A stretch of DNA of 64,000 nt from Eledone cirrhosa (lineage: Eukaryota): NCBI GenBank assembly GCA_964016885.1, contig OZ024745.1, positions 95,356,001 to 95,420,000 on the forward strand. Reading direction: 5' to 3'. The notes beneath the pieces were generated by a model that saw only the letters and a list, made by a program, of their open reading frames with translations, did not search any database and had not been told where the DNA came from. Positions 2,188 through 57,447 of this stretch are shown in pieces; the first letter of the stretch is position 1; every line of letters starts with the position of its first letter. Made by a program: the position numbers and the translations under genes.

Positions 2188-2541
2188 TAAAAGGTAAACA
2201 GAAATAACAACACAATCGGTACAGTATATGGAAGGTATATATTAGGTTAACGCTTGATATAGCAGGAAGGGGGTCTTAACATTTCGGACGCTAGTCCTTC
2301 ATCAGAAGAAAGAATGAGAAATAAAATAGATTAATGGGACGGGCGGGATGGAATTGGAAAAAATGTCTTTAGATAAAAATAATAGGTCCATTCATGTTGA
2401 CATCTCTTCCAAAACTGTTGGTGCTGGCGTTTTGTGTATGATTTGTTTTTTAGAAAAGTGGATGATGGCGCGCGTCTACCTGAAATGGAAAAAAAAAACC
2501 TTTTGCAAAAAGAGCTATACTTGACCACGTGCGAAAGCATG

Positions 2542-2600
<59 letters not shown>

Positions 2601-3790
2601 GTGCGTGTGTGTGTTATTATAGGTCCGTACGAAGCTCAGGAGAAATATGTGTGTATATGTGAGTAAAAGAGTGTGTGTGCATCTAAGTACGAAGCTATGA
2701 GCAAAGAGAAAGCGATAGGAATCTAGGGGTGTGTTAATGGACGGGGTATTAGAGAAATTGGGGAGGTCAGTTGAGACCAAGAGGGGAATAGGACCCAAGA
2801 TGGTGAATCAGACTTTGTTCGGTCCTGGTGCGCGAGGCCTGTGATCCATGATGTAAAAGGACATCAAGGACTGAAACATGTAGGGAAGAATGACCAGGAG
2901 AACAGAAATGACGGGCGACAGGAGTATCCAAACCGAGTCGTATGTCCCTCAAATGTTCGGCAAAACGGTCCGCCATATGGTGTCCCGTTTGTCCGATATA
3001 TAAAGACCCGCAAAGGGAACAACGGAGCGCATAGACAACGTGGGTAGATGTGCAGGTGAAGGAATGGCGGATACGGAAAGACCCGTTAGGGCCTGTAAGA
3101 GTGATGAGGGGGGAAATAAAGGGGAAAGTGTTGCAGCGGGAACGGGAACAAGAATGAGAGCCGGGTGGAGCCATGGGAGAGGACGAAAAAGAACTGCGAA
3201 CTAGGAGGTTGCGGGGGTTTCGGGTGCGCTTAAAATAAATAATGGGTGGGTTTGGAAAAAAGCGAAAGGTGACGGGGTCAGAAGAGAGGATACGGAAAAA
3301 ACGGAGGATAAGTCGCCGGAGTGGTAGGGTGATGGGGTGGTAGGTGAGAGGGAAAGGAACACGGGTGTTGGGAGAGCGGAGGATGAGGTGAGAGGGCTGT
3401 GGTGCGGTCTGTTTCACGGGCGCGGGTGAGCGCAGCTTGGATCAAGGTGGTGGGATATTCACGCTGGATGAAGCAGGAAGCCATGCGAAGGGGATGGGTT
3501 TCGAAATCGTCGTCCTGGCTACAGAGTCGACAAAGATGGAGGAATTGGGAATAGGGTATGGAGTGTTTGGTGTGGGTTGGATGGGAGGAGGTGAAGTCGA
3601 AATAAGATTGGGAGTCTGTTGGTTTAATGTAGATGGAAGTAGAGAGGGTGTGGTGAGAGTGATTAATAGATAGAGAGATATCTAGAAAAGCGACAGAAGA
3701 ATCAGAGACAGAGGCGGGGAAATTGAGAGCAGGATGGAAAGATTGGACGAAAGAAAGAAAACAGTCGAGTTTTTCTCGCGATAGAGAGGT
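2188..3790 (-). mobile_element. Penelope-like retroelement (Neptune-like): 5'-truncated RT C-terminus, GIY-YIG and 3' pLTR region
   Basis: ORF 3278-3886 has FLDISLS...YIKPTDSQSY...SSHPTHTKHSIPYSQF (PLE RT thumb). ORF 2767-3417 has FTCTSTHVVYALRCSLCGSLYIGQT...RFAEH (GIY-YIG). The two are frameshifted. Downstream 2188-2540 is homologous to 15540-15870 and holds a hammerhead motif. Confidence 0.85.
2272..2312 (-). ncRNA. Candidate minimal type-I hammerhead ribozyme (PLE pLTR)
   Basis: Minus strand reads tctt-CTGATGA-a-GGAC-tagc-GTCC-GAAA-tg-TT-aaga: conserved core, 4-bp stem II and stem I tctt/aaga. Confidence 0.65.
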
Positions 3791-7992: not shown

Positions 7993-8379
7993 ATTAGTAT
8001 ATTTAAATTAGCTTTTATGTAAGAGTGATATTATATGTTCAATGACATTCCAGCCATTGCTATGGGGGCGTAGAACCAAAATTGTCTGTGTTCTTCTTTT
8101 CTTACTAAATAGTCAGGGTAGAAATACTAGTGCTTATCACTCTTTTCAGGGTCTCGGGGGCCAGTAGGAGGAAAGTATCTCCAAACTCGACACCTTTACC
8201 CAAACGCCTTCCGGTTTTTATTCATCAAAAATTAGATTAGAGGGTTTTCAGAAGCGCATTACATAATGTGTCCTTCATGTTTTCAAATAGTAATATGTGG
8301 TTTTGGGGGTGGTTTGGCTGCTATCATCTCGGTATTCGAACAAATACGTAGATTCACTCTCGTTACCTTACATTATTTA

Positions 8380-8570
8380 CGCGGTGGATTGGCAGTATCG
8401 GTAGAGAGTCGGACACCATGCTTTGCAGTATAGTTACGGCCCTTTACGGTCTAAGTTCAAATCCCGCCGAGGTTAACTTTGCCTTTCATCCTTACGGGAT
8501 CGATAAAATAAAGTACCAGTAATGTACTGGGATAATTGCTGGCCTTGTGCCAAAAGTAGAAACAATTATT
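8380..8570 (+). mobile_element. tRNA-derived SINE with Nin/Deu-like core
   Basis: A-box-like tggcagtatcggtag, B-box gttcaaatccc, core gcctttcatccttacgggatcgataaaataaagtaccag. Several near-identical copies occur in the window. Confidence 0.85.
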
Positions 8571-8744
8571 TAATATAAAAATGTACGTGGAAAATGTATA
8601 TATTCATCTTTTACTAATGTTAAATAAAGTGCTCTTAATTAATTTTTAAAACATCGAATATTACTGATCTGTAGTTGTATGTATGTGGAGGATGGTGCTC
8701 CGAGAACATAATAACTAGAATAAGGATAGGATAGAAGTTTAGGG

Positions 8745-10612: not shown

Positions 10613-11551
10613 CCTTCTACCTTCGACTATCAACACACGAACTGTGGAACTTCTATCTTCGACTATCAACACACGAACTGTGGAACTTCTATCTTCGACT
10701 ATCAACACACGAACTGTGGAACTTCTATCTTCGACTATCAACACACGAACTGTGGAACTTCTACCTTCGACTATCAACACACGAACTGTGAAACTTCTAC
10801 CTTCGACTATCAACACACGAACTGTGAAACATCTATCTTCGACTATCAACACACGAACTGTGAAACTTCTACCTTCGACTATCAACACACGAACTGTGAA
10901 ACATCTATCTTCGACTATCAACACACGAACTGTGGAACTTCTACCTTCGACTATGAACACACGAACTGTGGTACTTCTACCTTCGACTATCAACACACGA
11001 ACTGTGGAACTTCTACCTTCGACTATCAACACACGAACTATGGAACTAGTACCTTCGACTATCAACACACGAACTGTGGAACTTCTACCTTCGACTATCA
11101 ACACACGAACTGTGGAACTTCTACCTTCGACTATCAACACACGAACTGTGGAACTTCTATCTTCGACTATCAACACACGAACTGTGGTACTTCTACCTTC
11201 GACTATCAACACACGAACTGTGAAACTTCTACCTTCGACTATCAACACACGAACTGTGAAACATCTATCTTCGACTATCAACACACGAACTGTGGAACTT
11301 CTATCTTCGACTATCAACACACGAACTGTGGTACTTCTACCTTCGACTATCAACACACGAACTGTGGAACTTCTACTTTCGACTATCAACACACGAACTG
11401 TGGTACTTCTACCTTCGACTATCAACACACGAACTGTGAAATATCTATCTTCGACTATCAACAAACGAACTGTGGAACTTCTACCTTCGACTATCAACAC
11501 ACGAACTGTGGTACTTCTACCTTCGACTATCAACACACGAACTGTGGAACT
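10613..11551. repeat. 36-bp minisatellite, ~26 tandem copies
   Basis: Unit actgtggaacttctaccttcgactatcaacacacga, head-to-tail with no spacers. It translates as (TVELLPSTINTR)n. Confidence 0.95.
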
Positions 11552-11667
11552 ATTACCAATTTTTCCACTTACTCAGGCCGCTACTATTTATAAGTAGTCG
11601 TCCACCCCATTCTCTCCGGAGGGGCGTCGTACTTTCGCACAAGGTTTTTTTTTTTGTTTTTGCGTTG

Positions 11668-13239: not shown

Positions 13240-15336
13240 CAAATGGAAACTATATTTATAAGACCATATATTTCAAGGGCCACCAAGGCAAATTATGGTG
13301 CGCTTTCATCAGATAAAATACAATACAGATTAGCTTTATAAATAAATATTGACATACCCTGAAAAAAAGACAACCTTAACGGTTGGAGCTTCCTGGATAG
13401 TGGAGATATTACATTTATTGAGGGTGATAGAAAGTTATGATTGAGTATGCAAATGAGTTTCCGAAAGGTTGAAAAGATAACGGTTTATTTAAATTAAACT
13501 GTTAGAAGAAGGTGATATTGTGAGGGAGAGAGAAAAAAGAAAGAAAGAGAAAAAGAAGGAATGATTATATATATTTTTGACAGTGAAAATATTGTGAAGA
13601 GAGGAGAGCGTGATTATATTTTTAAGTGGGAGAAAATATTAGTTACAAAGGACAAATACAGCGTAAGTATATTTACGTGAGAGGAAAGAAGAAGAAATAA
13701 AGAAATGAGGATAGCGTGGAGGAATAATATTTATATTGCAGGATTCGTTATGTTTTGATTATAATATTTATAATGATAGGTTGAAAAAATGTGATTAAAG
13801 GTTTTATTAATAATTTAATAATTAGTTTAAATGTGTATGTTAAGGATTATAAATTATTAAAAAATATATATTATATATTATAGTTTATTTTATTAAAAGT
13901 TGTAAGTCAAAATTTAAAATATCCAAATAATTCTAAATTAATGGTATTCTGGTTAGGTTTTAAGTTTCTGTTATTAATTCTATTAATATTCTGCGCTAAA
14001 TTCATAGTGGTGGAATATGATAGTTTAATAGTATGTCTATTAAATATTGAGTAATACCTGTGTGTTCTAGGAAAGCATTTATCTAGAGCTTTAAAGAATA
14101 ATTTCGCAATAGAAGTTTTAATACTTAATGAGAAAGGGGGGAGCGAACCATAATATATTTCTAGTTCTATTTTTCTTTTGGTTTTCGAGTTATTGTAAGG
14201 TTTTCTATTATAATATTTATAGTTATGGTTAGTTGGCACATCCTTATTATCAATGTATTTAATTTTATTACTATAACCTGCTCTACCTAACGCTTCGTTA
14301 TAATATTGTGCCTTATCTTCAAATATATTCTTATTAGCTGAAATTCTAGAAATACGTTGCTGCACAGAATTTACAATAGTGTTTATAACGGATCTGGGGT
14401 GATTGGAATTAAAGTTAACATAGTTTAGATTCTCATTTATTTTATGAAATGGATAATAAAGACCAGTGTTAAGGTTTAAAGTTACATCTAAAAAATTAAC
14501 TATTTTATAATTATTCTCTACTTCTACTTTAAGATTAAGGCGATTAAAAAATTGTATAATTTCTTTTCTTTTCCTATTTATTTCACAATTATTATTATTT
14601 TCTATAAGTAATAGCATATCGTCATGATATAAACCACCGGTCATCTCCGGTATTTTCCTATGTAAAGTATTGTTAATAAAAATCCCCACAAGATCCGTTA
14701 TTTGTGCCGAGTCGGATGATCCCATAGTAATATCAAAATTATTATCTCTGTCTGCTCTAGTCCAGAGGTGGTTGTTAAATTTAATTAATGTTTTACGTGC
14801 AGTTAAGATAATGTGAATTTCATTACTAGTTAAATCTGTATATTTAAATGCATATGTAAGGGCTTTATTAAGTAGATTAGGAGTGATAGATGAGTAATAA
14901 TTAGCAATATCCAATTGAATAAATTTATTGTTATACTTATATTTAATGTCCTTAAACCAGTCGATAACTTCGTTAGTCCCTTTCCATAATTTTAAATAAG
15001 ATAATTCCTTAAGTTGTGGTATGATTCTATCTAAGATATTCTTGCTAAGTATGCCAAGGTCCGATTTAGATGGTTCAATCAATCTAACTGGTAATTCAAT
15101 TTCAAAATTTCTTTTATGGTCCTTCATATTAATTTTTGGTTTCCTAGGTATGAAGGGTTGAGTCCTATTTTCGATGCCTAATTCCTGCATTATATAAGAA
15201 GCTTCCGTATTTAGTTTTTCAAGGTCATCACTGGTTGCTCTTTTGTAATTCTTCCTTAATTCCTTCAATATCTTCCTTAATTCCTTCAACATCTTTAAGC
15301 TTGTTGAATCCCAACAAATTAAATATAACCTCTGCA
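13237..15336 (-). mobile_element. Penelope-like element, RT ORF 13907-15337, no endonuclease visible
   Basis: MKDHK...VRLIEPSKSDLG, QLDIANYYSSI, FDITMGSSDSAQITDLVG, GGLYHDD, VNFLDVTLNL and SNHP are PLE RT motifs. A hammerhead-like motif lies downstream. Confidence 0.9.
13250..13322 (-). ncRNA. Candidate hammerhead ribozyme in PLE 3' region
   Basis: Minus strand reads CTGATGA-aagcgcacca...tggtggccctt-GAAA-tatatg-GTC. Stem II is imperfect and stem I is AT-rich and imperfect. Confidence 0.55.
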
Positions 15337-15539
15337 TATATATATATATATATATATATTATCATGATGATGAGATGATGGCTGCAACTCGATTTCGAGT
15401 AATGCCATCGATTGATACTTAGCATGAGCATGACGGACGTGGAATTTTAGTCATGCATGCAAACGAAGTCGCATGTTTTAAATCAGAGTGACCTTCTCCT
15501 AGAGAGATGTCTTAATGAAGACAAGGAGTCTCTCGCTCC

Positions 15540-18324: not shown

Positions 18325-18353
<29 letters not shown>

Positions 18354-18779
18354 GTTGTTATTACTCTTTGAGTCTCAGTCATTGATGTTAGTTAACTGGA
18401 AAGTTTGTTGAAATGAATATCAAGCCACTACCTGCAGCCTCAGATATTCAGGACGTATCACATCATGTCTCCAGCCCTTATAGTGAGTCTGGGCTAGGTG
18501 CTTACACTCGGATACAATGTGAGCCACAGTCTCCTCTCTCTCTCTCCACAGATCCAGCACAGTGGGCTAGCCTCCTCCTTGTAAATATGGTGTTTCAACC
18601 ACTTCATTTTGAGGGCCTGCTCCTGCGCAGCCATTAACATTCCTTCTATAGCCTTTTTAAGGTCTCCTCTTTTCAACCAGTTCCATGTCTGTGGATCTCT
18701 AAATTCAGTTTTCTCAAAGAAGGTATTATGAAGGGATTTTTCCTGAAGGCTGCTCTTTCTCCTTGATGTTATTTCCTCC

Positions 18780-18813
<34 letters not shown>

Positions 18814-19675
18814 GTTGTTGTTATTCCTTGAATCTCAGTCATTGATGTTGGTTAACTGGAAAGTCCGTTGGAATGAATATCAAGCCACTACCTGCAGCCT
18901 CAGATATTCAGGACGTATCGGAGGGTTCTTGCTGTTCCCAGCAAGCATGCCTTTTGAAGCGTTCCAAAAAGCGTGAAGGGGCCAATTTTCTTTAACCATC
19001 CCTGGAAACTTTTTGAAATAGTTCATAGTGCGCCTATGACTTCATGGCAGTTCCAAATCCTTTTTACCTCCCACTTTAAGTCCTGGTATCGGTTAATTTT
19101 CTCCCTCTCCTTCTCTTGCACTCTCGTGTCGAATGGGCAGGCCACATCCACAATCAGGCACGATCTTTTTCTTTGTCCACAACCACCAGGTCAGGTCTAT
19201 TGTGTTCCAGTTTCTTGTCCGTCTGTATCCTAAAATCCCACAGCACCTTCACCTGATCGTTTTCTATCACCGCTTCTGGCTTATGCTCCTACCACTTCTC
19301 AGAATGTGGTAAATTGTTTACTTTGCATAGGTGCCAGTGGATCACCCTGCCTATCACATCATGTCTCCAGCCCTTATAGTGAGTCTGGGCTAGGTGCTTA
19401 CACTCGGACACAATGTGAGCCACAGTCTCCTCTCTCTCTCTCCACAGATCCAGCACAGTGGGCTAGCCTCCTCCTTGTAAATATGGTGTTTCAACCACTT
19501 CGTTTTGAGGGCCTGCTCCTGCGCAGCCATTAACATTCCTTCTGTAGCCTTTTTAAGGTCTCCTCTTTTCAACCAGTTCCATGTCTGTGGATCTCTAAAT
19601 TCAGTTTTCTCAAAGAAGGTATTATGAAGGGATTTTTCCTGAAGGCTGCTCTTTCTCCTTGATGTTATTTCCTCC

Positions 19676-19712
<37 letters not shown>

Positions 19713-20138
19713 GTTGTTGTTATTCCTTGAATCTCAGTCATTGATGTTGGTTAACTGGAAAGTCCGTTGGAATGAATATCAAGCCACTACCTGCAGCCTC
19801 AGATATTCAGGACGTATCACATCATGTCTCCAGCCCTTATAGTGAGTCTGGGCTAGGTGCTTACACTCGGATACAATGTGAGCCACAGTCTCCTCTCTCT
19901 CTCTCCACAGATCCAGCACAGTGGGCTAGCCTCCTCCTTGTAAATATGGTGTTTCAACCACTTCATTTTGAGGGCCTGCTCCTGCGCAGCCATTAACATT
20001 CCTTCTATAGCCTTTTTAAGGTCTCCTCTTTTCAACCAGTTCCATGTCTGTGGATCTCTAAATTCAGTTTTCTCAAAGAAGGTATTATGAAGGGATTTTT
20101 CCTGAAGGCTGCTCTTTCTCCTTGATGTTATTTCCTCC

Positions 20139-20172
<34 letters not shown>

Positions 20173-21034
20173 GTTGTTGTTATTCCTTGAATCTCAGTCA
20201 TTGATGTTGGTTAACTGGAAAGTCCGTTGGAATGAATATCAAGCCACTACCTGCAGCCTCAGATATTCAGGACGTATCGGAGGGTTCTTGCTGTTCCCAG
20301 CAAGCATGCCTTTTGAAGCGTTCCAAAAAGCGTGAAGGGGCCAATTTTCTTTAACCATCCCTGGAAACTTTTTGAAATAGTTCATAGTGCGCCTATGACT
20401 TCATGGCAGTTCCAAATCCTTTTTACCTCCCACTTTAAGTCCTGGTATCGGTTAATTTTCTCCCTCTCCTTCTCTTGCACTCTCGTGTCGAATGGGCAGG
20501 CCACATCCACAATCAGGCACGATCTTTTTCTTTGTCCACAACCACCAGGTCAGGTCTATTGTGTTCCAGTTTCTTGTCCGTCTGTATCCTAAAATCCCAC
20601 AGCACCTTCACCTGATCGTTTTCTATCACCGCTTCTGGCTTATGCTCCTACCACTTCTCAGAATGTGGTAAATTGTTTACTTTGCATAGGTGCCAGTGGA
20701 TCACCCTGCCTATCACATCATGTCTCCAGCCCTTATAGTGAGTCTGGGCTAGGTGCTTACACTCGGACACAATGTGAGCCACAGTCTCCTCTCTCTCTCT
20801 CCACAGATCCAGCACAGTGGGCTAGCCTCCTCCTTGTAAATATGGTGTTTCAACCACTTCGTTTTGAGGGCCTGCTCCTGCGCAGCCATTAACATTCCTT
20901 CTGTAGCCTTTTTAAGGTCTCCTCTTTTCAACCAGTTCCATGTCTGTGGATCTCTAAATTCAGTTTTCTCAAAGAAGGTATTATGAAGGGATTTTTCCTG
21001 AAGGCTGCTCTTTCTCCTTGATGTTATTTCCTCC

Positions 21035-21035
<1 letters not shown>
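18325..21035 (-). repeat. Tandem array of four truncated R4/Dong-like 3' ends (short-long-short-long, period 1359 bp)
   Basis: Identical ORFs recur at +1359 (18413/19772, 18973/20332, 19306/20665). Each unit ends at ...ttatttcctcct followed by (ATT)n. Confidence 0.92.
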
Positions 21036-21071
<36 letters not shown>

Positions 21072-24000
21072 GTTGTTGTTATTCCTTGAATCTCAGTCAT
21101 TGATGTTGGTTAACTGGAAAGTCCGTTGGAATGAATATCAAGCCACTACCTGCAGCCTCAGATATTCAGGACGTATCGGAGGGTTCTTGCTGTTCCAAGC
21201 AAGCATGCCTTTTGAAGCGTTCAAAAAAGCGTGAAGGGGCCGATTTTCTTTAACCATCCCTGGAAACTTTTAGAGATAGTCCCCAGTGCGCCTATGACAA
21301 TCGGGATCACGTTGACTTCATGGCAGTTCCAAATCCTTTTCACCTCCCACTTTAGGTCCTGGTATCGGTTAATTTTCTCCCTCTCCTTCTCTTGCACTCT
21401 CGTGTCGAAAGGGCAGGCCACATCCACAATCAGACACGATCTTTTTTCTTTGTCCACAACCACCAGGTCAGGTCTATTGTGTTCCAGTTTTTTGTCCGTC
21501 TGTATCCTAAAATCCCACAGCACCTTCACCTGATTGTTCTCCATCACCGCCTCTGGCCTATGCTCATACCATTTCTCAGAATGTGGTAAATTGTTTACTT
21601 TGCACAGGTGCCAGTGGATCACCCTGCCCATCACATCGTGTCTCCAGCCCTTATAGTGGGTCTGGGCTAGGTGTTTACACTCGGACACAATGTGAGCCAC
21701 AGTCTCCTCTCTCTCTCCACAGATCCTGCACAGTGGGCTAGCCTCCTCCTTGTAAATATGGTGCTTCAACCACTTCGTTTTGAGGGCCTGCTCCTGCGCA
21801 GCCATTAGCATTCCTTCTGTAGCCTTTTTGAGGTCTCCTCTTCTCAACCAGTTCCATGTCTGTGGATCTCTAAATTCAGTTTTCTCAAAGAAGGTACTAT
21901 GAAGGGATTTTCCCTTAAGGCTGCTCTTCCTCCTTGATGTTATTTCCTCCTTGGACATCCCCTGGCCTACTGTCCCCTCCTTCAGTACAGTTTTGAGCAT
22001 TGGCTCCTTACTATAGGTCACGTATTTGTATAGGTTGTTTTTCTCCATCTGAACACAGTCCTCTATGCTGATAAGACCTCTTCCACCCTCAGATCTCCTT
22101 AGGTAGAGTCTATCGACATCACTCCTCTTGTGGAACATGTTGTAGATAGTCAATAGCTTCCTAGTCTTCCTATCCATTTCTTTTTGTTCAGAAACATTCC
22201 ATCTCAGAATTCCCGCACTGTACCTAATAATAGACAAAGCTCGGGAATTTACTGCGCTTATGGCATTTCTGCTGTTCAGATGTGACTTCAATACGCTCCT
22301 TACTCTCCGAATGTATTCAGTTCTTAAAAATTCCTTCATTTTTTTGTTCTTTATGCCATCAGCCTCCAGAACGCCCAAATACTTGTATCCTTCCTCAGAG
22401 TCAATTTCCTTTATCATCTCACCTGTTGGTATCTGGATCCTGCTACTTCTGCTCAACCTACCCCTCCTCATCACAATGACTCCACATTTACCAATACCAA
22501 ACTGCATACATATATCACTGCTGAAAATACGGACAGTGTCAACAAGCACATCCAACTCCTTCTCACTTTTCCCGAAGAGCTTAAGATCGTCCATGAAGAG
22601 GAGGTGATTGATGGTAAGCTCTCCCCTTCCCAAATTGTATCCTGCTCTCACTTTTCGCAGCATAATGGTCAAGGGCATTAGGGCAAGGACAAACAACAGA
22701 GGGGACAGGCTATCTCCCTGGAAGATACCTCTCTTGATCTTCACGCTTCCCAAGGATACTCCAGTTGATGTCAACTCTGTCTCCCAGGACCCCATACTCC
22801 TGCCCAGCAACTGTCTGATGTTATCTGCCACCCTGAAGATCTCCAGGCTTTTGGTGATCCAAGAATGAGGCACCATGTCAAATGCCTTTCTGTAGTCTAT
22901 CCATCCCATGGCAAGATCAGTGTGTCTCCTCCTGCAATTCCCCATTACCATCTTATCAATAAGTAACTGGTCCTTTGTACCACGTGACTTCTTTCGGCAT
23001 CCTTTCTGTTCGTCCGGTAACAAGTTGTTTGTGTGGAGGTGATGGTAGATTTCCTCAGACACAATGCTCGTCAACAGTTTCCACATTACGGACAGACATG
23101 TGATAGGTCTATAGTTGGTAACATCATTACCCTTGATTCGGTCTTTCATTATCAGAACTGTGGTACCTTTTGTCAACCACTCTGGCACCTCACCCGACAC
23201 CAAGCAGTCATTGAACATGGCCGTCAGCTTCGGGTGGATGGATGTTAAATGTTTAATCCAATACCCCTGCACACCATCTGGGCCTGGTGATTTCCAGTTG
23301 GTTAGTTTTTTGGCCTGCCCCTTAAGAGTTTCAATTGTGATACTCAAATCAGTTTGTTGTTGTGCCTGCTCACCGATCTCCCTCTGTACTGTCTCAATCC
23401 ACCCTGCCTGGGCATTATGTCTAACATCCTGCTCCCATATTCCTCTCCAGAATGTTTTAGTTTGTTCCGCCCCAGGGATCAAGTCGTTGCCTCTTTCTTT
23501 CCTCTCAAGCTGTCCAAACAGCATCTTCTGGCTGTTGTCGAACATGCGGTTCTGTTTATACTGACTGACTCTGTTCTCGTATCGCCTGATTTTTGCACTC
23601 TTTGCTACAATGCGTTGCTTCAATTCCTCTATGATAATATTTAGCTTTTTACTCCTAGTTTTGTATTTTATTTCCAGTCTATTTTTAGTGCCTATGTTTT
23701 TTAGTGTCCCATTCAGTAGTGACTCAAGCTTTCCTATGTCATTTCTCATTTCCCCGATTTGCCCACTCAGTCGCTTCTTCCACCACGGCTCTGCTCTTTC
23801 TTGTCTGTTGTTTCCTCTCGCTTTTATACCAAGTAGTTTCCTCACCGTATTTGCTGTTGCTTTGAGGATATTGTTGCACTGGTGAAGGCTCCTTGCCTCA
23901 AGGTATGGGATGACTTTGTTTACCTTAGCTGTTGTTTCTTTTAACTTTTTCCTGTCTACAAATCTTAGGTTCATATGTCTCCCACTATCATTGTTCAATT

Positions 24001-25628
24001 CATCTACCACTAAATTTAGGATGTCAACCGAATCTTGTCCTAGCCCGTCAGCATTCATCTCCTCAGTGGCCGTATCTCTGTTCCAGGTATTATTTATCTC
24101 AGTATTCAGATCATTGTCTGCTTCGGGTGGTTCCTCCGTTCTCAGGACCTCTTCACCTTCATTTCCCACTGGCTCGCTTGTCTGGCATACTACACCCGCC
24201 ATCTCCAAGCCATTCTCTCTGCTCAGTTCCTCCAGTTCCAGCTCGCTTATCCACCCATTAGTTCTTATTACCCGAGCCTGCCCGGCCAATTTTTGTTCAT
24301 CTAATTTAAATAAACCAATCTCGTTCCAGATGTTATGCATCCGTCTCCTGTAGCCCCTCTCCTTGGGGTTACTTTTCAGGTAGCATTGCATAACAGTTCT
24401 ATTCAATTCTTTCGTCCAGTTGGTTCTGGCCCTTTTCCTTTTTCTTCTTCCTCCAACATCAGCAGTATTTGGTTGACAGTCAGGTTCCTGCTGCTGAGCC
24501 AGGGGCACCTGTTGGGTGAGAGTCTGTCACATGACGTTCTAGTCTCCATTTCACCGTTATTCGAACTGTTTATGTTCGATATTTAAACACTCTTATCGAG
24601 GATTGGCGAATGTATGGTTACATAGCCATCTGTGGATCCGCCATCCCACTTGGCCCTTGTGTGGCATTATCACCACGCTGTATACGAACACACATAAACA
24701 AACAAACACACAGGCAGAAAGGGCCCCAAAAATGAATAAGCATAAGTTTCATTGTAATGTAGTGTTCGAATGTCTGACTTAGTTTTTGTTTTTTAAGTTT
24801 TAGTTTTTCCCCCCTCTTCTCTGTCCGTCCGCCTGCTTCTCTCTTCATTCTTATTTTCTTTACGTTTTGGGGGTTTCTTTTTTTGTTTTTGTTTTTCTCT
24901 GTTTGTTTTTCTCGTTTTTGCTGTTGTTGCTGTGCTGCTTTGGTTTTGTTGTTTGTTTTTTCTTTTTCTTTTGAGTCTATCTATATATTTTGATGCCTTC
25001 CTCTTTGTTAGTAGTAGCAATTCTATAATGTGGAAGTAGCAGCCAGCAGGGAGAAGTGGGAGACTGGCGGCGGTAGCGATACTGAGACAGTGGTGGTGGT
25101 GATGTCGATACCGAGGCAGTGGTGGCGGTGATGTGACCGTATTACTGTAGTGATGGTGCTGTAGCGGTGGCAGCAGTGAAGGAGTGAAGGGGTGGTGGCG
25201 GCGGTGATGGGATAGTGGTGGTAATGATGGCCGTAGTGAGCGGTGGTGGTGAAGGTGAAAATGCCGTTATCTGGCTGTTGTGTTTAGTGTACACAGATGA
25301 TGGGGTGGGTGGTGTATCTAGTTTCCGGTGTTGGTGAGTTTGGCTGTCCTATATAGTGTAGACAGAGGAGAGGAGTGGGGGGGGTTCTTCTTCCATTTAT
25401 AGCCATTTTCTTTTTTGGATATACAGTGTACAATACAAAGTTGAATATTTGAATATTTGAGCCTTATAACAATATATTTTGGGTCCGAATTTTTTGGGGC
25501 TAAAGCCGGGTGCTTTACGTAGCATTTGTACTAAGAGTTGTTATTTCACAAATGATTTAAATATGTTAAAAATTCAAAACTTACGGGAGCGATTTCATGA
25601 CCTCCGTCACCTCGTGCGTCTTCTTCCC

Positions 25629-25629
<1 letters not shown>
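21036..25629 (-). mobile_element. Full-length R4/Dong-like non-LTR retrotransposon (copy 1)
   Basis: Bounded by (ATT)n on both sides, with a single RT+CCHC+RLE ORF. Its 3' UTR and 1.1-kb leader are shared with copy 2. Confidence 0.9.
21221..24508 (-). CDS. R4/Dong-like polyprotein: RT, CCHC zinc knuckle, restriction-like endonuclease (1095 aa)
   Basis: KSPGPDG, YRPITCL, IDYRKAFD, RGIFQGDSLSP, LLFMDD, YKYLG, CRICGEREETVAHIVSEC, RHD, RPDLVVVD...IVDV, EKINRY. Compared with copy 2 it has a 1-nt deletion near the start and GGA>TGA about 21 codons before the normal stop (21158). Confidence 0.92.
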   Translation of the reverse strand: MPLAQQQEPDCQPNTADVGGRRKRKRARTNWTKELNRTVMQCYLKSNPKERGYRRRMHNIWNEIGLFKLDEQKLAGQARVIRTNGWISELELEELSRENGLEMAGVVCQTSEPVGNEGEEVLRTEEPPEADNDLNTEINNTWNRDTATEEMNADGLGQDSVDILNLVVDELNNDSGRHMNLRFVDRKKLKETTAKVNKVIPYLEARSLHQCNNILKATANTVRKLLGIKARGNNRQERAEPWWKKRLSGQIGEMRNDIGKLESLLNGTLKNIGTKNRLEIKYKTRSKKLNIIIEELKQRIVAKSAKIRRYENRVSQYKQNRMFDNSQKMLFGQLERKERGNDLIPGAEQTKTFWRGIWEQDVRHNAQAGWIETVQREIGEQAQQQTDLSITIETLKGQAKKLTNWKSPGPDGVQGYWIKHLTSIHPKLTAMFNDCLVSGEVPEWLTKGTTVLIMKDRIKGNDVTNYRPITCLSVMWKLLTSIVSEEIYHHLHTNNLLPDEQKGCRKKSRGTKDQLLIDKMVMGNCRRRHTDLAMGWIDYRKAFDMVPHSWITKSLEIFRVADNIRQLLGRSMGSWETELTSTGVSLGSVKIKRGIFQGDSLSPLLFVLALMPLTIMLRKVRAGYNLGRGELTINHLLFMDDLKLFGKSEKELDVLVDTVRIFSSDICMQFGIGKCGVIVMRRGRLSRSSRIQIPTGEMIKEIDSEEGYKYLGVLEADGIKNKKMKEFLRTEYIRRVRSVLKSHLNSRNAISAVNSRALSIIRYSAGILRWNVSEQKEMDRKTRKLLTIYNMFHKRSDVDRLYLRRSEGGRGLISIEDCVQMEKNNLYKYVTYSKEPMLKTVLKEGTVGQGMSKEEITSRRKSSLKGKSLHSTFFEKTEFRDPQTWNWLRRGDLKKATEGMLMAAQEQALKTKWLKHHIYKEEASPLCRICGEREETVAHIVSECKHLAQTHYKGWRHDVMGRVIHWHLCKVNNLPHSEKWYEHRPEAVMENNQVKVLWDFRIQTDKKLEHNRPDLVVVDKEKRSCLIVDVACPFDTRVQEKEREKINRYQDLKWEVKRIWNCHEVNVIPIVIGALGTISKSFQGWLKKIGPFTLF

Positions 25630-25669
<40 letters not shown>

Positions 25670-28600
25670 TCTATTATTGTTATTCCTTGAATCTCAGTCA
25701 TTGATGTTGGTTAACTGGAAAGTCCGTTGGAATGAATATCAAGCCACTACCTGCAGCCTCAGATATTCAGGACGTATCGGAGGGTTCTTGCTGTTCCCAG
25801 CAAGCATGCCTTTTGAAGCGTTCCGAAAAGCGTGAAGGGGCCGATTTTCTTTAACCATCCCTGGAAACTTTGGGAGATAGTCCCCAGTGCGCCTATGACA
25901 ATCGGGATCACTTTGACTTCATGGCATTTCCAAATCCTTTTTACTTCCCACTTTAAGTCCTGGTATCGGTTAATTTTCTCCCCCTCCTTCTCTTGCACTC
26001 TCGTGTCGAATGGGCAGGCCACATCCACAATCAAACACGATCTTTTTTCTTTGTCCACAACCACCAGGTCAGGTCTATTGTGTTCCAGTTTCTTGTCCGT
26101 CTGTATCCTAAAATCCCACAGCACCTTCACCTGATCGTTTTCCATAACCGCCTCTGGCCTATGCTCATACCATTTCTCAGAATGTGGTAAATTGTTTACT
26201 TTGCACAGGTGCCAGTGGATCACCCTGCCCATCACATCATGTCTCCAGCCCTTATAGTGGGTCTGGGCTAGGTGTTTACACTCGGATACAATGTGAGCCA
26301 CAGTCTCCTCTCTCTCTCCACAGATCCTGCACAGTGGGCTAGCCTCCTCCTTGTAAATATGGTGTTTCAACCACTTCGTGTTGAGGGCCAGCTCCTGCGC
26401 AGCCATTAACATTCCTTCTGTAGCCTTTTTATGGTCTCCTCTTCTCAACCAGTTCCATGTCTGTGGATCTCTAAATTCAGTTTTCTCAAAGAAGGTAATA
26501 TGAAGGGATATTCCCTGAAGGCTGCTCTTTCTCCTTGATGTTATTTCCTCCTTGGACATCCCCTGGCCTATTGTCCCCTCCTTCACCGATCTCCCTCTGT
26601 ACTGTCTCAATCCACCCTGCCTGGTCATTATGTCTAACATCCTGCTCCCATATTCCTCTCCAGAATGTTTTAGTTTGTTCCGCCCCAGGCATCAAGTCGT
26701 TGCCTCTTTCTTTCCCCTCAAGCTGTCCAAACAACATCTTCTGGTTGTTGTCGAACATGCGGTTCTGTTTATACTGACTGACTCTGTTCTCGTATCGCCT
26801 GATTTTTGCACTCTTTGCTACAATGCGTTGCTTCAGTTCCTCTATGATAATATTTAGCTTTTTCCTCCTAGTTTTGTACTTTATTTCCAGTCTATTTTTA
26901 GTGCCTATTTAGTGTCCCATTCAGTAGTGACTCAAGCTTTCCTATGTCATTTCTCATTTCCTTGATTTGACCACTCAGTCGTTTCTTCCACCACGGCTCT
27001 GCTCTTTCTTGTCTGTTGTTTCCTCTCGCTTTTATACCAAGTAGTTTCCTCACCGTATTTGCTGTTGCTTTGAGGATATTGTTGCACTGGTGAAGGCTCC
27101 TTGCCTCAAGGTATGGGATGACTTTGTTTACCTTAGCTGTTGTTTCTTTTAACTTTTTCTTGTCTACAAATCTTAGGTTCATAGGTCTCCCACTATCATT
27201 GTTCAATTCATCTACCACTAAATTTAGGATGTCAACCTAATCTTGTCCTAGCCCGTCAGCATTCATCTCCTCAGTGGCCGTATCTCTGTTCCAGGTATTA
27301 TTTATCTCAGTATTCAGATCATTGTCTGCTTCGGGTGGTTCCTCCGTTCTCTCGACCTCTTCACCTTCGTTTCCCTCTGGCTCGTTTGTCTGGCATACTA
27401 CACCCTCCATCTCCAAGCTATTCTCTCTGCTCAGTTCCTCCAGTTCCAGCTCGCTTATCCACCCATTAGTTCTTATTACCCGAGCCTGCCCGGCCAATTT
27501 TTGTTCATCTAATTTAAATAGACCAATCTCGTTCCAGATGTTATGCATTCCCTCCTATAGCCCCTCTCCTTGGGGTTACTTTTCAGGTAACATTGCATAA
27601 CAGTTCTATTCAATTCTTTCGTCCAGTTGGTTCTGGCCCCTTTCCTTCTTCTTCTTCCTCCAACATCAGCAGTATTTGGTTGACAGTCAGGTTCCTGCTG
27701 CTGAGCCAGGGAGCACCTGTTGGGTGAGAGTCTGTCACATGACGTTCTAGTCTCCATTTCACCGTTATTCGAACTGTTTAGGTTCGATATTTAAACACAC
27801 TTATTGAGGATTGGCGAATGTATGGTTACATAGCCATCTGTGGATTCACCGTCTCCGGTGGTTGCGCCGCTCCACTTGGCTCTTGTGTGGCATTATCACC
27901 ACGCTGTAGACGAACACAAATAAACAAACAAACACACAGGCAGAAAAAACCCCAAAAATGAATAAGCATAAGTTTCATTGTAATGTAGTGTTCGAATGTC
28001 TGACTTAGATTTTCCCTTCTCTTCTCTGTCCGTCCGCTTGTTTCTCTCTTCATTCTTATTTTCTTTACGTTTTTTTTTGTTTTTTTTGTTTGGTTTTTTT
28101 TTTGTTTGGTTTTTTTGTTTTTTGTTTTTGTTTTTCTCTGTTTGTTTTTCTCGTTTTTTGCTGTTGTTGCTGTGCTGCTTTGGTTTTGATGTTTGTTTTT
28201 TCTTTTTTCTTTTAAGTCTATCTATATATTTTGATGCCTTCCTCTTTTTTAGTAGGAATTTTATAATGTGGTGGCAGCAACTAGCAGGAAGCAATGGGAG
28301 AGAATAGCGGCGGTAGCGATACTGAGACAGTGGTGGTAGTGATGTCGATACCGAGGCAGTGGTGGTGGTGATGTGATCGTATTACTGTAGTGATGGTGTT
28401 GTAGCGGTGGTAGCAATGAAGGAGTGGTGGCGGCGGTGATGGGATAGTGGTAGTAATGATGGCAGTAGTGATGGTGTTGTAGCGGTGGTAGCAATGAAGG
28501 ACTGATGTCCGTTCGCTGAATCTATGGGGTTAGTCGCGTATATGTGTTGACCTAAATTCCCTTAATGTTGGGATTAAACATTTTGTTAAGACTTGGGACA

Positions 28601-29037
28601 ATAATAATAGTATTTATTATTATCCTTATTATGTTGAGATTTGTTGTGGTGGTGGTGAAATTGCCGTTATCTGGCTGTTGTGTTTAGTGTACACAGAGAG
28701 GTGATGGGGTAGGTGGTGTATCTAGTTTCTGGTGTTGGTGAGATTGGTGTTGTTTGGCTGTTCTATATAGTGTAGACAGAGGAGGGGGTGTTCTTCTTCC
28801 ATTTATAGCCATTTTCTTTTTTGAATATACAATGTACAATACAAAGTTGAATATTTGAATATTTGAGCCTTATAACAATATATTTTGGGTCCGAATTTTT
28901 TTGGGGCTCAAGCCGGATGCTTTACGTAGCATTTGTACTAAGAGTTGTTATTTCACAAATGATTTAAATATGTTAAAAATTCAAAACTTACGGGAGCGAT
29001 TTCATGACCTTCTACCACCTCGTGCGTCTTCTTCCCT
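25630..29037 (-). mobile_element. R4/Dong-like copy 2, internally deleted (RT domain lost)
   Basis: Colinear with copy 1. The junction at ~26584 joins copy-1 equivalents ~21984 and ~23372. It keeps the N-terminus, CCHC and RLE (ORF 25759-26640). Confidence 0.9.
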
Positions 29038-29067: not shown

Positions 29068-29755
29068 AGTTGCATTTATCTTGCTTTATGTTCATACGAG
29101 TTATCACCAAGTCACAACCAGTGACCTTAAGAGACAACAAGGTCCGCTATGTTCAAGAAAGAACATACATACTCACACATGCATCTTTAGTGTTTAGACT
29201 TGTGATGTACTTATATTGACAGAATCTTCCTTAGTATATGGGCAGTTCCCATTAGTACTATCTTTTGTATTTCTCCTATACGCGGGTTTCCTGGGATTTG
29301 CGATAAGTAATCATTAGACCCCTTAGGTATCATTCCCAGAGCGCCTACAACCACTGGTATTGTTTTAGTTCTCAACTTCCACATTTTTCCAATTTCTATC
29401 TCCAGGTCCTTATACTTGCTCAATTTTTCAAATGTTTTTATAGATACATTCTTGTCTATTGGAACGGACATATGAATTAGCAGACATACCCTGTTTTTAA
29501 AGTCCTTCAGCATTATATCAGGTCTATTTGCATCTATTTTTCGGTCTGTTTGGATGCAAAAGTTCCACAAGATTGAGATGTGATCTTTTTCAAGTATGGG
29601 AGGTGGTTGATGCTCCCACCAATTCTTTTGATAGGGCAGGTCAAAATGCTTACACATTATGAAATGTATGTATTGTGCAGCTTTGTCATGCCTGTTTAGT
29701 TATTTGGTTGGAGCTTTAGGACTGCACATCGAAATTATATGATCAATGGTCTCTT
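29068..29755 (-). mobile_element. 5'-truncated R4/Dong-like element of a second family
   Basis: ORF 29211-29657 has ILWNFCIQTDRKIDANRPDI...KLSKYKDL...IPVVVGALG. ETIDHIIS.C and RHD lie upstream. Flanked by (ATT)n. Confidence 0.88.
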
Positions 29756-29982
29756 ATTATTATTATTATTATTATAGGTCTAAGCGGACGTATTTTGCTC
29801 GCTCACAGTAAGTCGCTTTATTTGCCTGTTAAAATTATTTGTTGTTAAATATTTCTTGTTGTGTAAGGGATATAAGCCCTTAGACTTTGCCCCGTGAAGG
29901 GGAAAGTATAATATTTGGGCCTTTTGGCCCAAATATTTGAACTTTTTTTTACATGTTAAAAAATTTACGAAGAAACAAAAAC

Positions 29983-35406: not shown

Positions 35407-35907
35407 GTAGGTAAATTTGAAGAGGAGAGGGGTGCCCTTCCATGGTGCTCTCGAAGCGTCGGGTCGTTCAGGACTGGTGGGGTACCTGAGCGAACCCTAG
35501 GTGGTCATCCCCCCTATTGGGGAATTTTTTCTTGTTGTAATTTTATTGCTACTTTATTGTTACTTTGTTATTGTTACTTTGTTATTGTTATTCATTTTGT
35601 TTACTCGATTTTTCTGTAAAACCCCACTGTCCCAGTCTTTTGTATTGTCCCCTATATGTCGGCCCTTGTGGCCAAATGAAATCATTATTATTATTATTAT
35701 TGGCGACATACGTAGTAAATCGTATTATTGTGAGCTCCGCAAAGGTTTAAGTTGTTTAAATTGCCATTTATGGAAAACTTTTATTGTTAACTGTATATAA
35801 GTGCACATACATTGTTTTCTGAAAAGGACACTCAAAAAGATTGGGGCCTTGAGCCCAAAATTTAAACTTTTATAATTATCAAACAAAAATTTTTCTTTGA
35901 AAAAATC

Positions 35908-38010
35908 ATGGACGACTCAGAGTCACACCTTCCTCACAAACTAACACCTCACACCGACACCACCATTGTAAATATTACTACGTTTGCCAACACTAAAATT
36001 ATAAGCAGTAGCAATATTTTAAATTTGTCTCAGGCAGACATTTATTTCCCGCCATTACCAATGACTGCAGGTGTTGAAGCCGCCACCTCCACCACCACCA
36101 CACCGACAACAGAAACAAAAGAAAAAAATAAATTATCTCGTGATATCGAAATGAACTCTTCCACACCGAACACCACTAACGCCACCAACACCACAACTGA
36201 AACTAAAATTAACAATAACAAAAATAACGATAACAACAACAGCAACAATGAAATTAAGAAAACCACCCTGTCTTTTGCAAGAGTAGCAAAAACGTGCGAA
36301 GCGATCCAGGTGACTCAGGAGGAATTAGAAGAAGCCAAAAGAATGGTAAAGAAAGATGGGTACAGGGTCAGCCTCACCCACCCACCCCCACACACACCTA
36401 ATAAAATGGAGCATCGGCGCCTATGCACCGTGTCTTATCGGACGATTAACATAAAATCGGGCCGAGAGGAATGGGCATCCGAGTCCCAAATCCTAAAAGC
36501 TTTGGGACATGTGTGGGCAAAAAAAACCCACATCAGACGTGGGCAGAAATATGGAACCGTGGACGTGTTCTTTGAAACACCACAGGAGGCCAGAGAACAC
36601 TCCATGGCCCCATTAAGAAGTGACGACTTCACACTCGTCCCAAGCTATTGTGGCCAGAGACTCGTGAAGATCAGGGTGACCCACGTTCCACCGGCCATCG
36701 AAATTCCCTGGCTAATGGCAGCCGTCCTCGCCGGCATCGGGGCCAACACCAAGATAATCGAAATAGCGAAAGAAAAGCAGAACTGGTCCGGATCTGGGAT
36801 GGAGCTCCTGATCCAAGCGGACCATAAAAGCATTGAGGAGATCCCAGAGGTAATAGACCTCACTGACGGCAGCCACCTCACCGTAATCGTCGAGGGCAGA
36901 AGGCCTAGGTGTGTCGTTTGTGGTGAAGGAACCCACCTAAGGGCTTTCTGCCCTCGGGCTAAAAGGTTGAGGCCACCTTTCTTACCCACCCAGTGACTCA
37001 ACCATCAACACCACCAGCAGCAGAGATGGCAGCAACAAATGTAGCAGCAACAACAGAAGCAACTGTAACAGCAACAACCCCAGCAACAGTAGCAAGACCA
37101 ACACCACCACCACCCAACGCACCAGAACTAGCACCAGCGCCTACACCATCCACCACGCCACAACCAAAACCAACGCCTGTGGGGGATTTTCCACTCCCCG
37201 GCTTATCGCAACTGGAGACAGATTGTGACGACGACGAGTGGGAAACGGTATCAGGAAAAAAGAAAAAAAGAAACCAAAAAAGAAAAAATTCTCTTCCTTC
37301 CTCCTCCAAAAACAAAATACAGAGGGAAACAAATAAACTATCAAACAAAAAAGTTAGGACAGATATGCCACCATCCACACCTGCATCACCAACACCATCA
37401 CCATCATTAACCTCAAAACCACCATCACCAACACCACAAAGGTCACCAAAAAGCGAAACAGAAACAAACCCACAACAAACGCAAACAAAACAAAACAACC
37501 AAAACGATACACACTACACAGCATTAAATTTGAACAACAAATAGGCGGTGGATTGGCAGTATCGGTAGAGGGTCGGACGCCATGCTTTCCAGCATAGTTA
37601 CGTCCCTTTACGATCTGAGTTCAAATCCCGCCGAGGTTGACTTTGCCTTTCATCCTTACGGGGTCGATAAAATAAAGTACCAGTAATGCACTGGATAATT
37701 GCTGGCCTTGTGCCTAAAGTAGAAACAATTAAATTTGAACAACAACCAATTATTACACTACATCCAACACAACACCAGCATCACAGAAAAAGACTACACA
37801 ACAACCCAAAAGTTCACACCACCTCCACACATACAAATCACTCGCATCACTCAGAAAACGTACACGACACCTGAAACAAAAATTCCCCAAATACATCGGA
37901 GACTTCCGATAAGCACTCTCCAGGAGGATTTATAAGGACATCCTTCCTGAGGAGGCCACAAGCAGTGATAAGGATGGAGAAACCATCCTTCCTCTACGAG
38001 AAGTAAGGTA
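35908..38010 (+). pseudogene. Tx1 ORF1, interrupted by frameshift and SINE
   Basis: LSFARVAK, IRRGQKYGTVDVFF, CVVCGEGTHLRAFC and WETVSGKKKKR. Confidence 0.8.
37541..37727 (+). mobile_element. Full-length SINE inserted in Tx1 ORF1, 18-bp TSD
   Basis: SINE consensus flanked by attaaatttgaacaacaa at 37523-37540 and 37728-37745. Confidence 0.92.
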
Positions 38011-41461: not shown

Positions 41462-41753
41462 ATTAAAGGTGGAAAACTGGGAGAGGGTACTTCCCTGATG
41501 GTCAGGGTCACTGTGGCCTTTTAATGGGCTTTCTCCACAAATGTCCCTCGGAAGTCTCCCCCCTATTGGGGAATTTTTCTTTGTTATTTTATTTCATCCT
41601 CTGTTTTTTTTTACACGCAGAAATGCCCATTTGTACCGTCCTGTATTGTCCTGTATTGTCCTGTACTGTCCTTAATGTCTACTTTATGTAAACCCTTGTG
41701 GTTAATAAAGAAAACATTATTATTTTTATTATTATTATTATTATTATTATATA

Positions 41754-41940
41754 AGGCGGGGAATTGGCAGTATCGGTAGAGGCTCGGACATGATTTCCAG
41801 CATAGTTACGTCCCTTTATGATGTGAGTTCAAATCCCGCCGAGCTAAACTTTGCCTTTCATCCATAAGGGGTCGATAAAATAAAGTACCAGTAATGTACT
41901 GGGTAATTGCTGGCCTTGTGCCAAAAGTAGAAACAATTAT
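41754..41940 (+). mobile_element. Full-length SINE between (ATT)n tracts
   Basis: Matches the 8380 and 37541 copies and ends in an (ATT)n tail. Confidence 0.88.
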
Positions 41941-41969
41941 TATTATTATTATTATTATATATATATATG

Positions 41970-50800: not shown

Positions 50801-51690
50801 TTCCTTGTTAATGCTATTGAGTGTAGACTCTGTAGTTTTCTTGTATTTTTTTGTGTAATTCCCGGCGTATAAAGTTATTGTATGTATTAAGACTCATGGT
50901 GTATACGTTTGATGTTTTGTCTGCTTTTACTATAATACCGTTGGTGTTACGCAATTTTTTTAGTAGTGCATTCGTGTTATTTTGCAGTTTGTTGTAATGC
51001 GTCGGTTTTTTTAATTTGGTTCCTTTTATCATATTCATGAGGTCAAGTTCAAAGGCGTCAATTTGGTGGTTGTTCGGTGGATTTTTGCAGGATTTGAACC
51101 CATATTTTTCACTGGTAAATTCATCATTCTTATCATTACTATTACTACCACTATTATTAGTAGTATGTCCTTTATCGTAATGATATGCTTTCCATCGGAT
51201 TCGACGGATGAATTCATTAGTTCTTTGTATCATACCGAGTATGTATTCTACGGCGGAGGAGTTCAAAAAACGTTGGTACGTCCACAGACATTCTATAAAA
51301 AACCGTAAACTAATGAATACAACAACGTTCGCCAATAAAATCTGGCAACTCAAAGATACAAATCAAGAATACAGGATTAACTGGTCTAAATTGTCAGGGG
51401 CAATGGCTTACAAGATTGGTATGTCCCACTGTAGACTTTGTAATATGGAATTATTCATATTTTAAAATATGACAAAATGCTGCTTAACAGCAAAATTGAA
51501 CGGTCAATTTTCTGTCGACATATAACAGCAAATAAATTTGATAATTTCAAACCAATTTGATTTGACCCAACAATTCCATAATTCAAATTATACCACCTGA
51601 GTCTATTATAATAACCCATTATCATAATTCAAATTATACCACCTGAGTCTATTATAATAACCCATTATCATCATTGTTGTTGTTATTTTT
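47815..51690 (-). mobile_element. Penelope-like element (RT + GIY-YIG, frameshifted) with inverted 3'-end copy at its 5' side
   Basis: FIRRIRWKA, IIVKADKT, MGSNDSAQITDMVG, INRDD, NFLDVSL and YLCTI...HYIGST...KKRWYVH. 51245-51690 is an inverted copy of ~48745-49195. Confidence 0.9.
48033..48147 (-). ncRNA. Candidate hammerhead ribozyme with long stem-II loop
   Basis: Minus strand reads acagttctt-CTGATGA-t-TTGGTTAAG-(~60 nt)-CTTAACCAA-t-GAAAC-AATT-GTT-aatactgt. Stem III lies in the palindrome AACAATTGTT. Confidence 0.65.
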
Positions 51691-56990: not shown

Positions 56991-57447
56991 AGAAGTCTAT
57001 ATGTGAATACAGTAAAACAACAATATATCGAAGGTCAACTCTTCATATTGGTAAATGTAATTCATTCATTCATACCAGCAGCATCTATTTTCAAATTCAC
57101 TGCTTGAAGCTTCCTATCGACATTCTCAAGTGAAGATTCATGAACATTTTCCGTCAACAGTTTCGTCGCTTTTCTATCTCCATTATCGCCTTTTTTTGTA
57201 TCATGGATTACTTTACTGATTACAGAAGTAAGTGTATATTTGCATATATCAATATGCACACTATACATACTAGCAATATATACTAGTAATAATAATAATT
57301 ATTATTATTATGTGTTTAGTTAATTCTCATTGAAATATTTATATGAATTTCGGCGCAATCTAGAGACTACCTTGACCTCTGATTGCTACTTAAGCCAACC
57401 CGCTTTGTAATATTCTTTTATCCGGCCCCAGCAGGGCGAAACACGGC

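Follow-up and report, generated by a model that had tools for sequence, protein, structure and literature searches.

A 64,000-nucleotide stretch of Eledone cirrhosa DNA (contig OZ024745.1, positions 95,356,001 to 95,420,000; hereafter the window) contains long interspersed nuclear elements (LINEs) of the R4/Dong type, which use a restriction-like endonuclease (RLE), next to LINEs of the Tx1/L1 group, which use an apurinic/apyrimidinic endonuclease (APE), and our subject is the 5′ end of the former. R4-clade RLE elements have one open reading frame (ORF). Dong of the silkworm Bombyx mori and R4 carry a hepatitis delta virus (HDV)-like ribozyme at the 5′ end, where Dong self-cleaves (PMC3774820), and the target of Dong is the TAA repeat (PMC3812793). 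Exchange of LINE 5′ ends is known from mouse L1, for which 11 replacements of the 5′ untranslated region (UTR) are described, with fronts passing between co-active families and template switching as the proposed route (PMC3600994). Hybrids of RLE and APE elements are known from the Drosophila R2/R1 short internally deleted elements (SIDEs), which join elements of a shared target locus and propagate as a family, and RLE reverse transcriptases (RTs) jump templates in vivo, adding small nuclear RNA and transfer RNA (tRNA) to R2 5′ ends (PMC3414825). In Octopus vulgaris, Dong-R4 and L1-Tx1 are among the most recently active LINE groups; the main text of that paper, as available, contains nothing on promoters, UTRs or chimeras (PMC13282606), and the available text of PMC8967140 and PMC7140322 adds nothing on 5′ ends.

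The R4/Dong-type family of the window, D1, and a second RLE family, D2, have a 5′ end that departs from these systems. Our reading, to which we assign a probability of roughly 0.6, is that these single-ORF elements carry an acquired non-coding front whose first ~230 bases would derive from a Tx1-type 5′ UTR and would act as an internal promoter. D1 shares with Dong and R4 the TAA-repeat target and a layout in which one ORF encodes both an RT and, C-terminally, a CCHC finger with a nuclease of the PD-D type. D1 and D2 differ from silkworm Dong in their acquired leader of 0.9–1.3 kb; a search for an HDV-like fold at their 5′ ends found none. As in mouse L1, a LINE body has repeatedly been given a new 5′ end; the mouse exchange took place within L1 families (PMC3600994), whereas here the likely donor is of the APE type and the recipients are of the RLE type and only 35% identical to each other in protein. 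The R2/R1 SIDEs are short and non-autonomous, with an RLE ribozyme front and an APE tail (PMC3414825), whereas here a full-length coding RLE element has an APE-type 5′ UTR and many D1 copies have an intact ORF. The cattle L1-BovB chimera likewise unites two LINE clades in one element, but it is a nested copy that has been rearranged and shows little sign of being transcribed (PMC6036668), and the front described here belongs to a replicating family. The cross-clade 5′ chimera is real and family-wide, although 5′-end replacement itself was already known; a Tx1-type front on Dong/R4 was not found in the literature searched, which excluded most subscription journals, Repbase Reports and supplements.

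The initial annotation of the window held that both Dong-like copies begin with the same leader at the edge of a microsatellite and that leader and ORF may now move as a unit, all of which is borne out. The leader of copy 1 (25629-24550, minus strand, 1.08 kb) starts at the edge of the (TTA)n tract that separates the 3′ end of copy 2 from it and runs to the ORF start codon at 24549-24547, and the leader of copy 2 is 90% and 84% identical to it in their two blocks, with an additional segment of ~180 nt that is also present in the D2 leader. In the 3.0-Gb genome a 19-nt leader word occurs exactly 1,994 times (985 + 1009), and a control word 0 times. Sixty copies were taken as the first listed places of this word, by position and not by similarity; 58/60 continue into an RLE body (23 D1a, 21 D1b and 14 D2), the other 2 are stumps, and 0/60 lead into a same-strand Tx1 element or Tx1 ORF1. 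Among the 30 best loci for the first 301 leader nucleotides, which include the window's own, 29 carry on into the D1 ORF for 600 nt or more, the remaining one having an internal deletion directly after the ATG, and nearly all start at +1, as loci selected by the same query. Since the join of leader and Dong body is found at dispersed loci, a local duplication is ruled out. Of the best 150 matches to the N-terminus, roughly 49 (counted by eye) belong to a frame that is complete at 1141 aa, and in contigs from four sequencing runs both leader and ORF are covered in organism A, with organisms B and C, thinly covered, set aside. Copies of the young R4/Dong-type family D1 normally begin with this leader.

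The resemblance of the front of this leader to Tx1 5′ ends, judged by eye in the initial annotation, was confirmed by profile searches in both directions together with a colinear alignment. A Tx1-only profile, built from eight Tx1-like 5′ UTRs taken from flanks, scores 15–32 bits on D1 leaders overall (D1b, the highest of the D leaders, 22.3; window copy 2, 20.1; D1a, 15.3), compared with 7.3 bits for the best of 8,000 shuffles and 3–85 bits for Tx1 families left out of the model. Across 565,872 bases of retrieved sequence this profile has 179 matches of at least 3 bits, of which 95 are Tx1 elements, 71 are D leaders and 13 are one or the other by eye. Conversely, a D-only profile finds TxF copies at 17–41 bits, TxA copies at 9–19 bits and, at 22 bits, a Tx1-like start (L273) that had gone into none of the models. 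D leaders and Tx1-like 5′ UTRs align colinearly from about +38 through the ATG, up to +229, over ~190 nt with few gaps, at 49–56% identity between D leaders and TxF as against 35–61% among the Tx1 starts themselves. In pairwise comparison the signal is weak, though it exceeds chance: D1 against TxA, the first APE element of the window, gives z scores of 4.2–5.7 with gapped 5/-4 scoring (0–1 of 500 shuffles as good), and TxA against TxB, the second, gives 5–11, with reverse-complement controls at or below 1.9; plain BLASTN of the leader returned no window Tx1 5′ UTR among the matches listed. We regard homology of the first ~230 nt to Tx1-like 5′ UTRs, read from these comparisons, as well supported and very probable. 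Convergence, in which similar AT-rich internal promoters evolved independently under the same host factors, would fit an identity of just ~50% in AT-rich DNA, and the unrelated leader of D3, a third local RLE family, does show GTAAGT close to its beginning, as well as an A-rich ATG with C/A-rich sequence after it. Yet the long D3 leader, our negative control, stays below 3 bits on the Tx1 profile in 30/30 loci, no unrelated sequence matches that profile anywhere in the 566 kb scanned, the ATG stands in register at the end of the colinear alignment, and the closeness of the D leaders is family-specific, to TxF and TxG, all of which makes convergence very improbable.

The Tx1-like module of the leader contains a GCTC..GTAAGT block, a run rich in T, one arm (the right) of the Tx1 palindrome AATATT-GGGCC and, in register with the point where Tx1 elements begin ORF1, an A-rich ATGG. 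The words singled out in the initial annotation are present: TCGCTCCCGTAAGT lies at 25592-25579 (+38 to +51, against the ~45 nt first given for it), the CAAATATTCAACTTT block within 25463-25437, and the ATG of the A-rich ATGGCT at +224, compared with +207 in both window Tx1 elements. The first ~37 nt of the leader, in contrast, align poorly with Tx1 starts, and matches of the D profile on Tx1 begin mostly at profile positions 37–46.

The front was added to elements that already had a 5′ UTR. No Dong relative from outside matches the Tx1 or the D profile (0/25, those with their N-terminus on the contig among 80 loci fetched, some contigs possibly being cut short), and their visible 5′ ends reach a few hundred bases past the (AAT)n. 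The last ~130 nt of the D1 leader match the metagenome relative L159 (BLASTN E 8e-10 for D1a and 5e-12 for D1b), and D2 retains at +1006 a longer ancestral motif that in L146 starts directly after the (AAT)n; an older Dong 5′ UTR therefore lies behind the front in both families, shortened in D1 but complete in D2. Where the acquired part of the D1 leader meets the ancestral part, a D1-specific block ends in a U-rich tract followed by TACAG, which looks like a 3′ splice site. The 5′ end is homologous to a foreign element, is missing from the outgroups and conflicts with the tree of the ORF, which together is the pattern of a 5′ UTR replacement, with transfer likely from Tx1 to Dong. The reverse direction, or descent of both fronts from another element or a host gene, would suit the facts that the donor family was not found, although a closer Tx1 donor was sought via TxF relatives, and that the leader tree gives the D clade no resolved position among the Tx1 UTRs. 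Both facts weigh against our reading too, but at least nine Tx1-like starts share a common layout at 35–61% identity, deeper than the D leaders among themselves (64–96%), and together with the absence of the front from outside relatives and the older 5′ UTR behind it in D1 and D2 this leaves such an origin highly improbable.

The ancestral 5′ ends have features of their own. A ~110-nt 5′ motif is conserved in Dong relatives (L102:2025-2145, minus strand; L144:244-365; L146:95-215; L159:1-75), its stems apparently covarying and Rfam giving no match; it is a candidate for an ancestral ribozyme or for another kind of RNA element, its fold being drawn from three sequences, too shallow a basis for naming the structure. 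Active self-cleavage at the motif retained in D2 is unlikely, as just 1/30 D2 copies starts there. A second conserved 5′-terminal motif, GCGCCAGT ... GGCTTGGTGCC ... CACTGG, occurs in a different group of Dong relatives, L147, L148, L151, L156-L158, L166, L171 and L178, with a likely pseudoknot pairing and no Rfam match in the three scanned. In other outside relatives, on metagenome contigs, tRNA-like heads stand directly at the 5′ end (L191:84-168, L164:10-90 and L169:105-185); that of L191 is a tRNA-Gly by ARAGORN, and L164 and L169 have A/B-box-like words by eye only. These heads are possibly independent promoter captures. In D1 the start codon has also turned over (24547-24582): the ancestral ATG (24582-24580) is ATA in D1a, where the next ATG follows 11 codons on, while D1b still reads ATG at the first site and GTG at the second.

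Fronts have been exchanged repeatedly between D1 and D2. In the RT tree (23 of 49 rows used) D2 falls among outside elements and monophyly of D1 and D2 is rejected (approximately unbiased test, p-AU 1e-54); the D2 front is nevertheless 77–80% identical to window copy 2 over 636 nt. In the leader tree, from which one rearranged row was left out, D1a groups with D2 (100/100) apart from D1b, and a D1a + D1b grouping is rejected (p-AU 0.004), even though the bodies of D1a and D1b are ~88–90% alike. Mosaics are seen directly, with D1a-type leader pieces in 4/30 D2 loci and a D2-like front on a D1b body in 10/60 sampled copies. D–D neighbors are parallel (100/101 pairs), and head-to-tail stacking in (TAA)n tracts would explain the exchange. 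Tandem or stacked leader modules, reminiscent of L1 monomer arrays, occur at L345, L356, L370, L375, L380, L397 and L400 and at L344, L350, L351, L359, L388, L393 and L394, the types being a repetition of D1 positions 159-492 and a D2-like front upstream of a D1b leader. The D3 leader (L314-L343; e.g., L315:1190-2350, sense) contains two related ~200-nt units, each beginning GAAGAA.., with a GTAAGT word in the first unit and, often, a short interspersed nuclear element (SINE) inserted at ATTATT between the units. In D2, leader positions +855 to +905 (L102) are the 3′ tail of an abundant SINE-like repeat of ~190 nt that ends in ATTATT; the same repeat lies in the window at 37542-37731, 8372-8575 and 41746-41957 and interrupts TxB.

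What was transferred does not include a recognizable ORF1. Of the decayed Tx1 ORF1 that had been proposed to follow the module, the base composition is there (A 0.37–0.39, C 0.30–0.31), but an alignable or maintained frame is not: across 26 sequences the ATGGCT frame spans 18–42 codons and shifts among copies, the longest ATG frame in the leader is 42–84 codons, and 20/21 DNA comparisons of the leader middle with seven Tx1 ORF1 starts are at shuffle level, the other one (D2 against TxD) reaching z 3.3, uncorrected. A two-ORF chimeric LINE, with a Tx1 ORF1 ahead of the RLE ORF, is accordingly rejected. Nor does the route first suggested, capture through co-residence in one microsatellite, hold. 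(AAT)n precedes Dong starts in 59/67 cases and (ATT)n precedes Tx1 starts in 78/79, and adjacent D–Tx pairs are antiparallel in 80/80 (the loci behind the neighbor counts overlap, so that these are not fully independent); co-residence therefore does not account for the capture. This calls either for a jump of the RT between templates or for an insertion of Dong, in sense orientation, into a Tx1 ORF1.

Accordingly, an ancestral Dong would have gained its front from Tx1 in the sense orientation. Either its RT would have jumped onto a short Tx1 RNA, or a 5′-truncated Dong would have inserted into the Asn-codon (AAY)n of Tx1 ORF1, whose Asn-rich start does have short (AAY)n runs, and would then have been transcribed from the Tx1 promoter. 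The new front would have freed Dong from host read-through and self-cleavage, the route of silkworm Dong, and D1 and D2 would later have exchanged fronts through their head-to-tail stacks in (TAA)n tracts. The donor group is likely that of the microsatellite-targeting Tx1 elements such as Kibi and Koshi. Like them, the Tx1 elements here are two-ORF APE LINEs in simple repeats (PMC4494074); their target here is (ATT)n, and the Dong elements show only the 5′ UTR, with no coding part.

Internal promoters in the 5′ UTR are established for mammalian L1 and are assumed for these Tx1 elements. By its position, its spread, its stacking and the precise 5′ ends at which no ribozyme was detected, the module is likely an internal promoter in D1 and D2. 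Scanning the leaders and 11 outside relatives against Rfam gave no ribozyme, and our own descriptor of the HDV-like fold, used with no positive control, matched neither D1a nor D2 and picked out a single candidate in D1b, which is internal and non-canonical. (A sigma-70 promoter scan was disregarded as inapplicable to an animal genome.) An alternative that accepts the Tx1 origin would have the front ride along as a passenger, or serve translation or stability, with transcription by read-through from neighbors or host introns. The elements do lie in stacks, where read-through is easy; the left arm of the palindrome is gone in D1, so that this feature has decayed; and Tx1-conserved columns show no extra conservation, differences between D1a and D1b not avoiding them (84/133 vs 54/95, p = 0.34). 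Set against this are the precise starts, with 17/30 D2 copies beginning within the first 13 nt of the front and nearly all 30 D1 loci at +1, the negative search for an HDV-like fold at the 5′ end with our descriptor, and the spread of the front across families and its tandem occurrence in some subfamilies, as for something useful. We consider a passenger or read-through role unlikely.

A further possibility, itself compatible with a promoter role, is that most of the leader is a 5′ UTR intron (GTAAGT at +52 to TACAG at ~+950) that is spliced out for translation while the unspliced RNA is copied. Donor and acceptor look-alikes are present in both D1a and D1b, the acceptor-like site falls where the acquired and ancestral parts meet, and splicing would take out several upstream ATGs. 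We nevertheless judge it quite unlikely: for the one junction tested, no spliced genomic D1a copy with the exact predicted join exists and none is among the contig joints listed, Tx1 UTRs in which an acceptor is not obvious likewise contain GTAAG, and the D1 acceptor block is not in D2.

The decayed palindrome and unprotected columns that suit a passenger front also count against our reading of an acquired Tx1-type promoter, as do several further points. The sequences are AT-rich and the pairwise signal varies with scoring, D1 against TxA falling to z 1.3–1.5 under stringent 2/-3 scoring. The D2 leader alone scores -0.7 bits on the Tx1 profile and is linked to Tx1 via D1, to which it is 82% identical. 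A same-strand Tx1–Dong junction is seen in 0/80 pairs, and neither capture route has a direct example. Finally, the promoter role is a prediction both for Dong and for these Tx1 elements. As a bolder extension of the same reading, the Tx1-derived internal promoter may have become a mobile cassette among R4/Dong lineages. It would have enabled RLE elements that had depended on ribozymes and read-through to transcribe themselves, would have driven their spread into thousands of young copies, and would even now be handed on and stacked between families with (TAA)n arrays in common; this we put forward tentatively, with the odds somewhat against it.

The window itself holds, from 18.3 to 41.7 kb, a LINE pile whose joints are made of (TAA/TTA)n tracts (Table 1), with the two D1 copies, several D1 3′ fragments and then a D2 3′ fragment on the minus strand and the APE elements TxA and TxB on the plus strand. 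In copy 1 the ATG frame closes after 48 codons and 1101 aa are open from 24526. The D1 protein matches RVT_1 (E 3e-23), its best PDB matches are R2 proteins, the domain scan gave no Exo_endo_phos (APE) match, and CCHC and PD-D motifs are read downstream of the RT in the translation; the N-terminus we take to be Myb-like. D1 is therefore best classed as an R4/Dong-type RLE element, a name given from structure and target, the RT trees containing unnamed relatives only. TxA has Exo_endo_phos, RVT_1 and zf-RVT domains, with L1 ORF2 as best PDB match (E 1e-28), and the TxC-TxG loci have ORF1, endonuclease or RT matches; we assign TxA-TxG to the Tx1/L1 group, the choice of Tx1 over L1 being the label of the initial annotation and consistent with microsatellite targeting.

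Table 1. Features of the LINE pile, in window coordinates
Feature	Position	Strand	Basis or remark
(TTA)n tract, (TAA)n on the sense strand, Dong target	25629..25684	.	Tandem Repeats Finder (TRF)
First ~37 nt of leader, purine-rich, common to D1a, D1b and D2	25593..25629	-	D-profile matches, alignment
Tx1-like module	25401..25592	-	Profiles and alignment
Low-complexity spacer, ACC/CAC-rich then A-rich, non-coding, differs among copies	24781..25400	-	
D1-specific block, 3′ edge a U-rich tract + TACAG	24678..24780	-	
Ancestral Dong 5′ UTR remnant	24550..24677	-	BLASTN to metagenome relative L159
D1 single ORF: RT, CCHC finger, PD-D-type nuclease motif	21221..24549	-	Motifs read from sequence
D1 copy 2, internal deletion (copy-1 positions ~2259-3645)	25685..29037	-	
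Copy 2 leader variant, 1279 nt	27758-29037	-	Tx1-like module 28807-28999
D2 (second RLE family) 3′ fragment	29068..29750	-	Full-length D2 elsewhere has the same front
TxA 5′ UTR, Tx1-like	29777..29982	+	Element reaches ~35681
TxB 5′ UTR, Tx1-like	35702..35907	+	Element reaches ~41715
D1 3′ fragments, head-to-tail stack with (TAA)n between	18325..21084	-	

Elsewhere in the window, a 36-bp tandem repeat lies at 10614-11557 (26 copies, 94% matches), and several of its reading frames are open. Pieces at 13907-15358, 48741-51697 and 52804-56992, picked by eye from the ORF list, are presumably Penelope-like (RT/GIY-YIG) and Helitron-like (Rep/helicase), and the presumed Penelope-like copy at 48.7-51.7 kb lies between inverted repeats of ~456 bp.

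By published descriptions, ribozymes cut RLE elements such as R2, R4 and silkworm Dong out of host transcripts, whereas L1-group elements bring their own promoter. If our reading is true, D1 and D2 would represent a natural switch between these two modes of transcription, across the deepest split among LINEs, and would offer a 230-nt promoter candidate for one of the LINE groups reported as most recently active in octopus. The chimera also means that 5′ ends can misclassify LINE families in repeat libraries. Should the mobile-cassette proposal be true as well, it would, taken with the D3 leader and the tRNA-like heads seen outside, make promoter capture a means by which this clade has repeatedly escaped co-transcription with the host.

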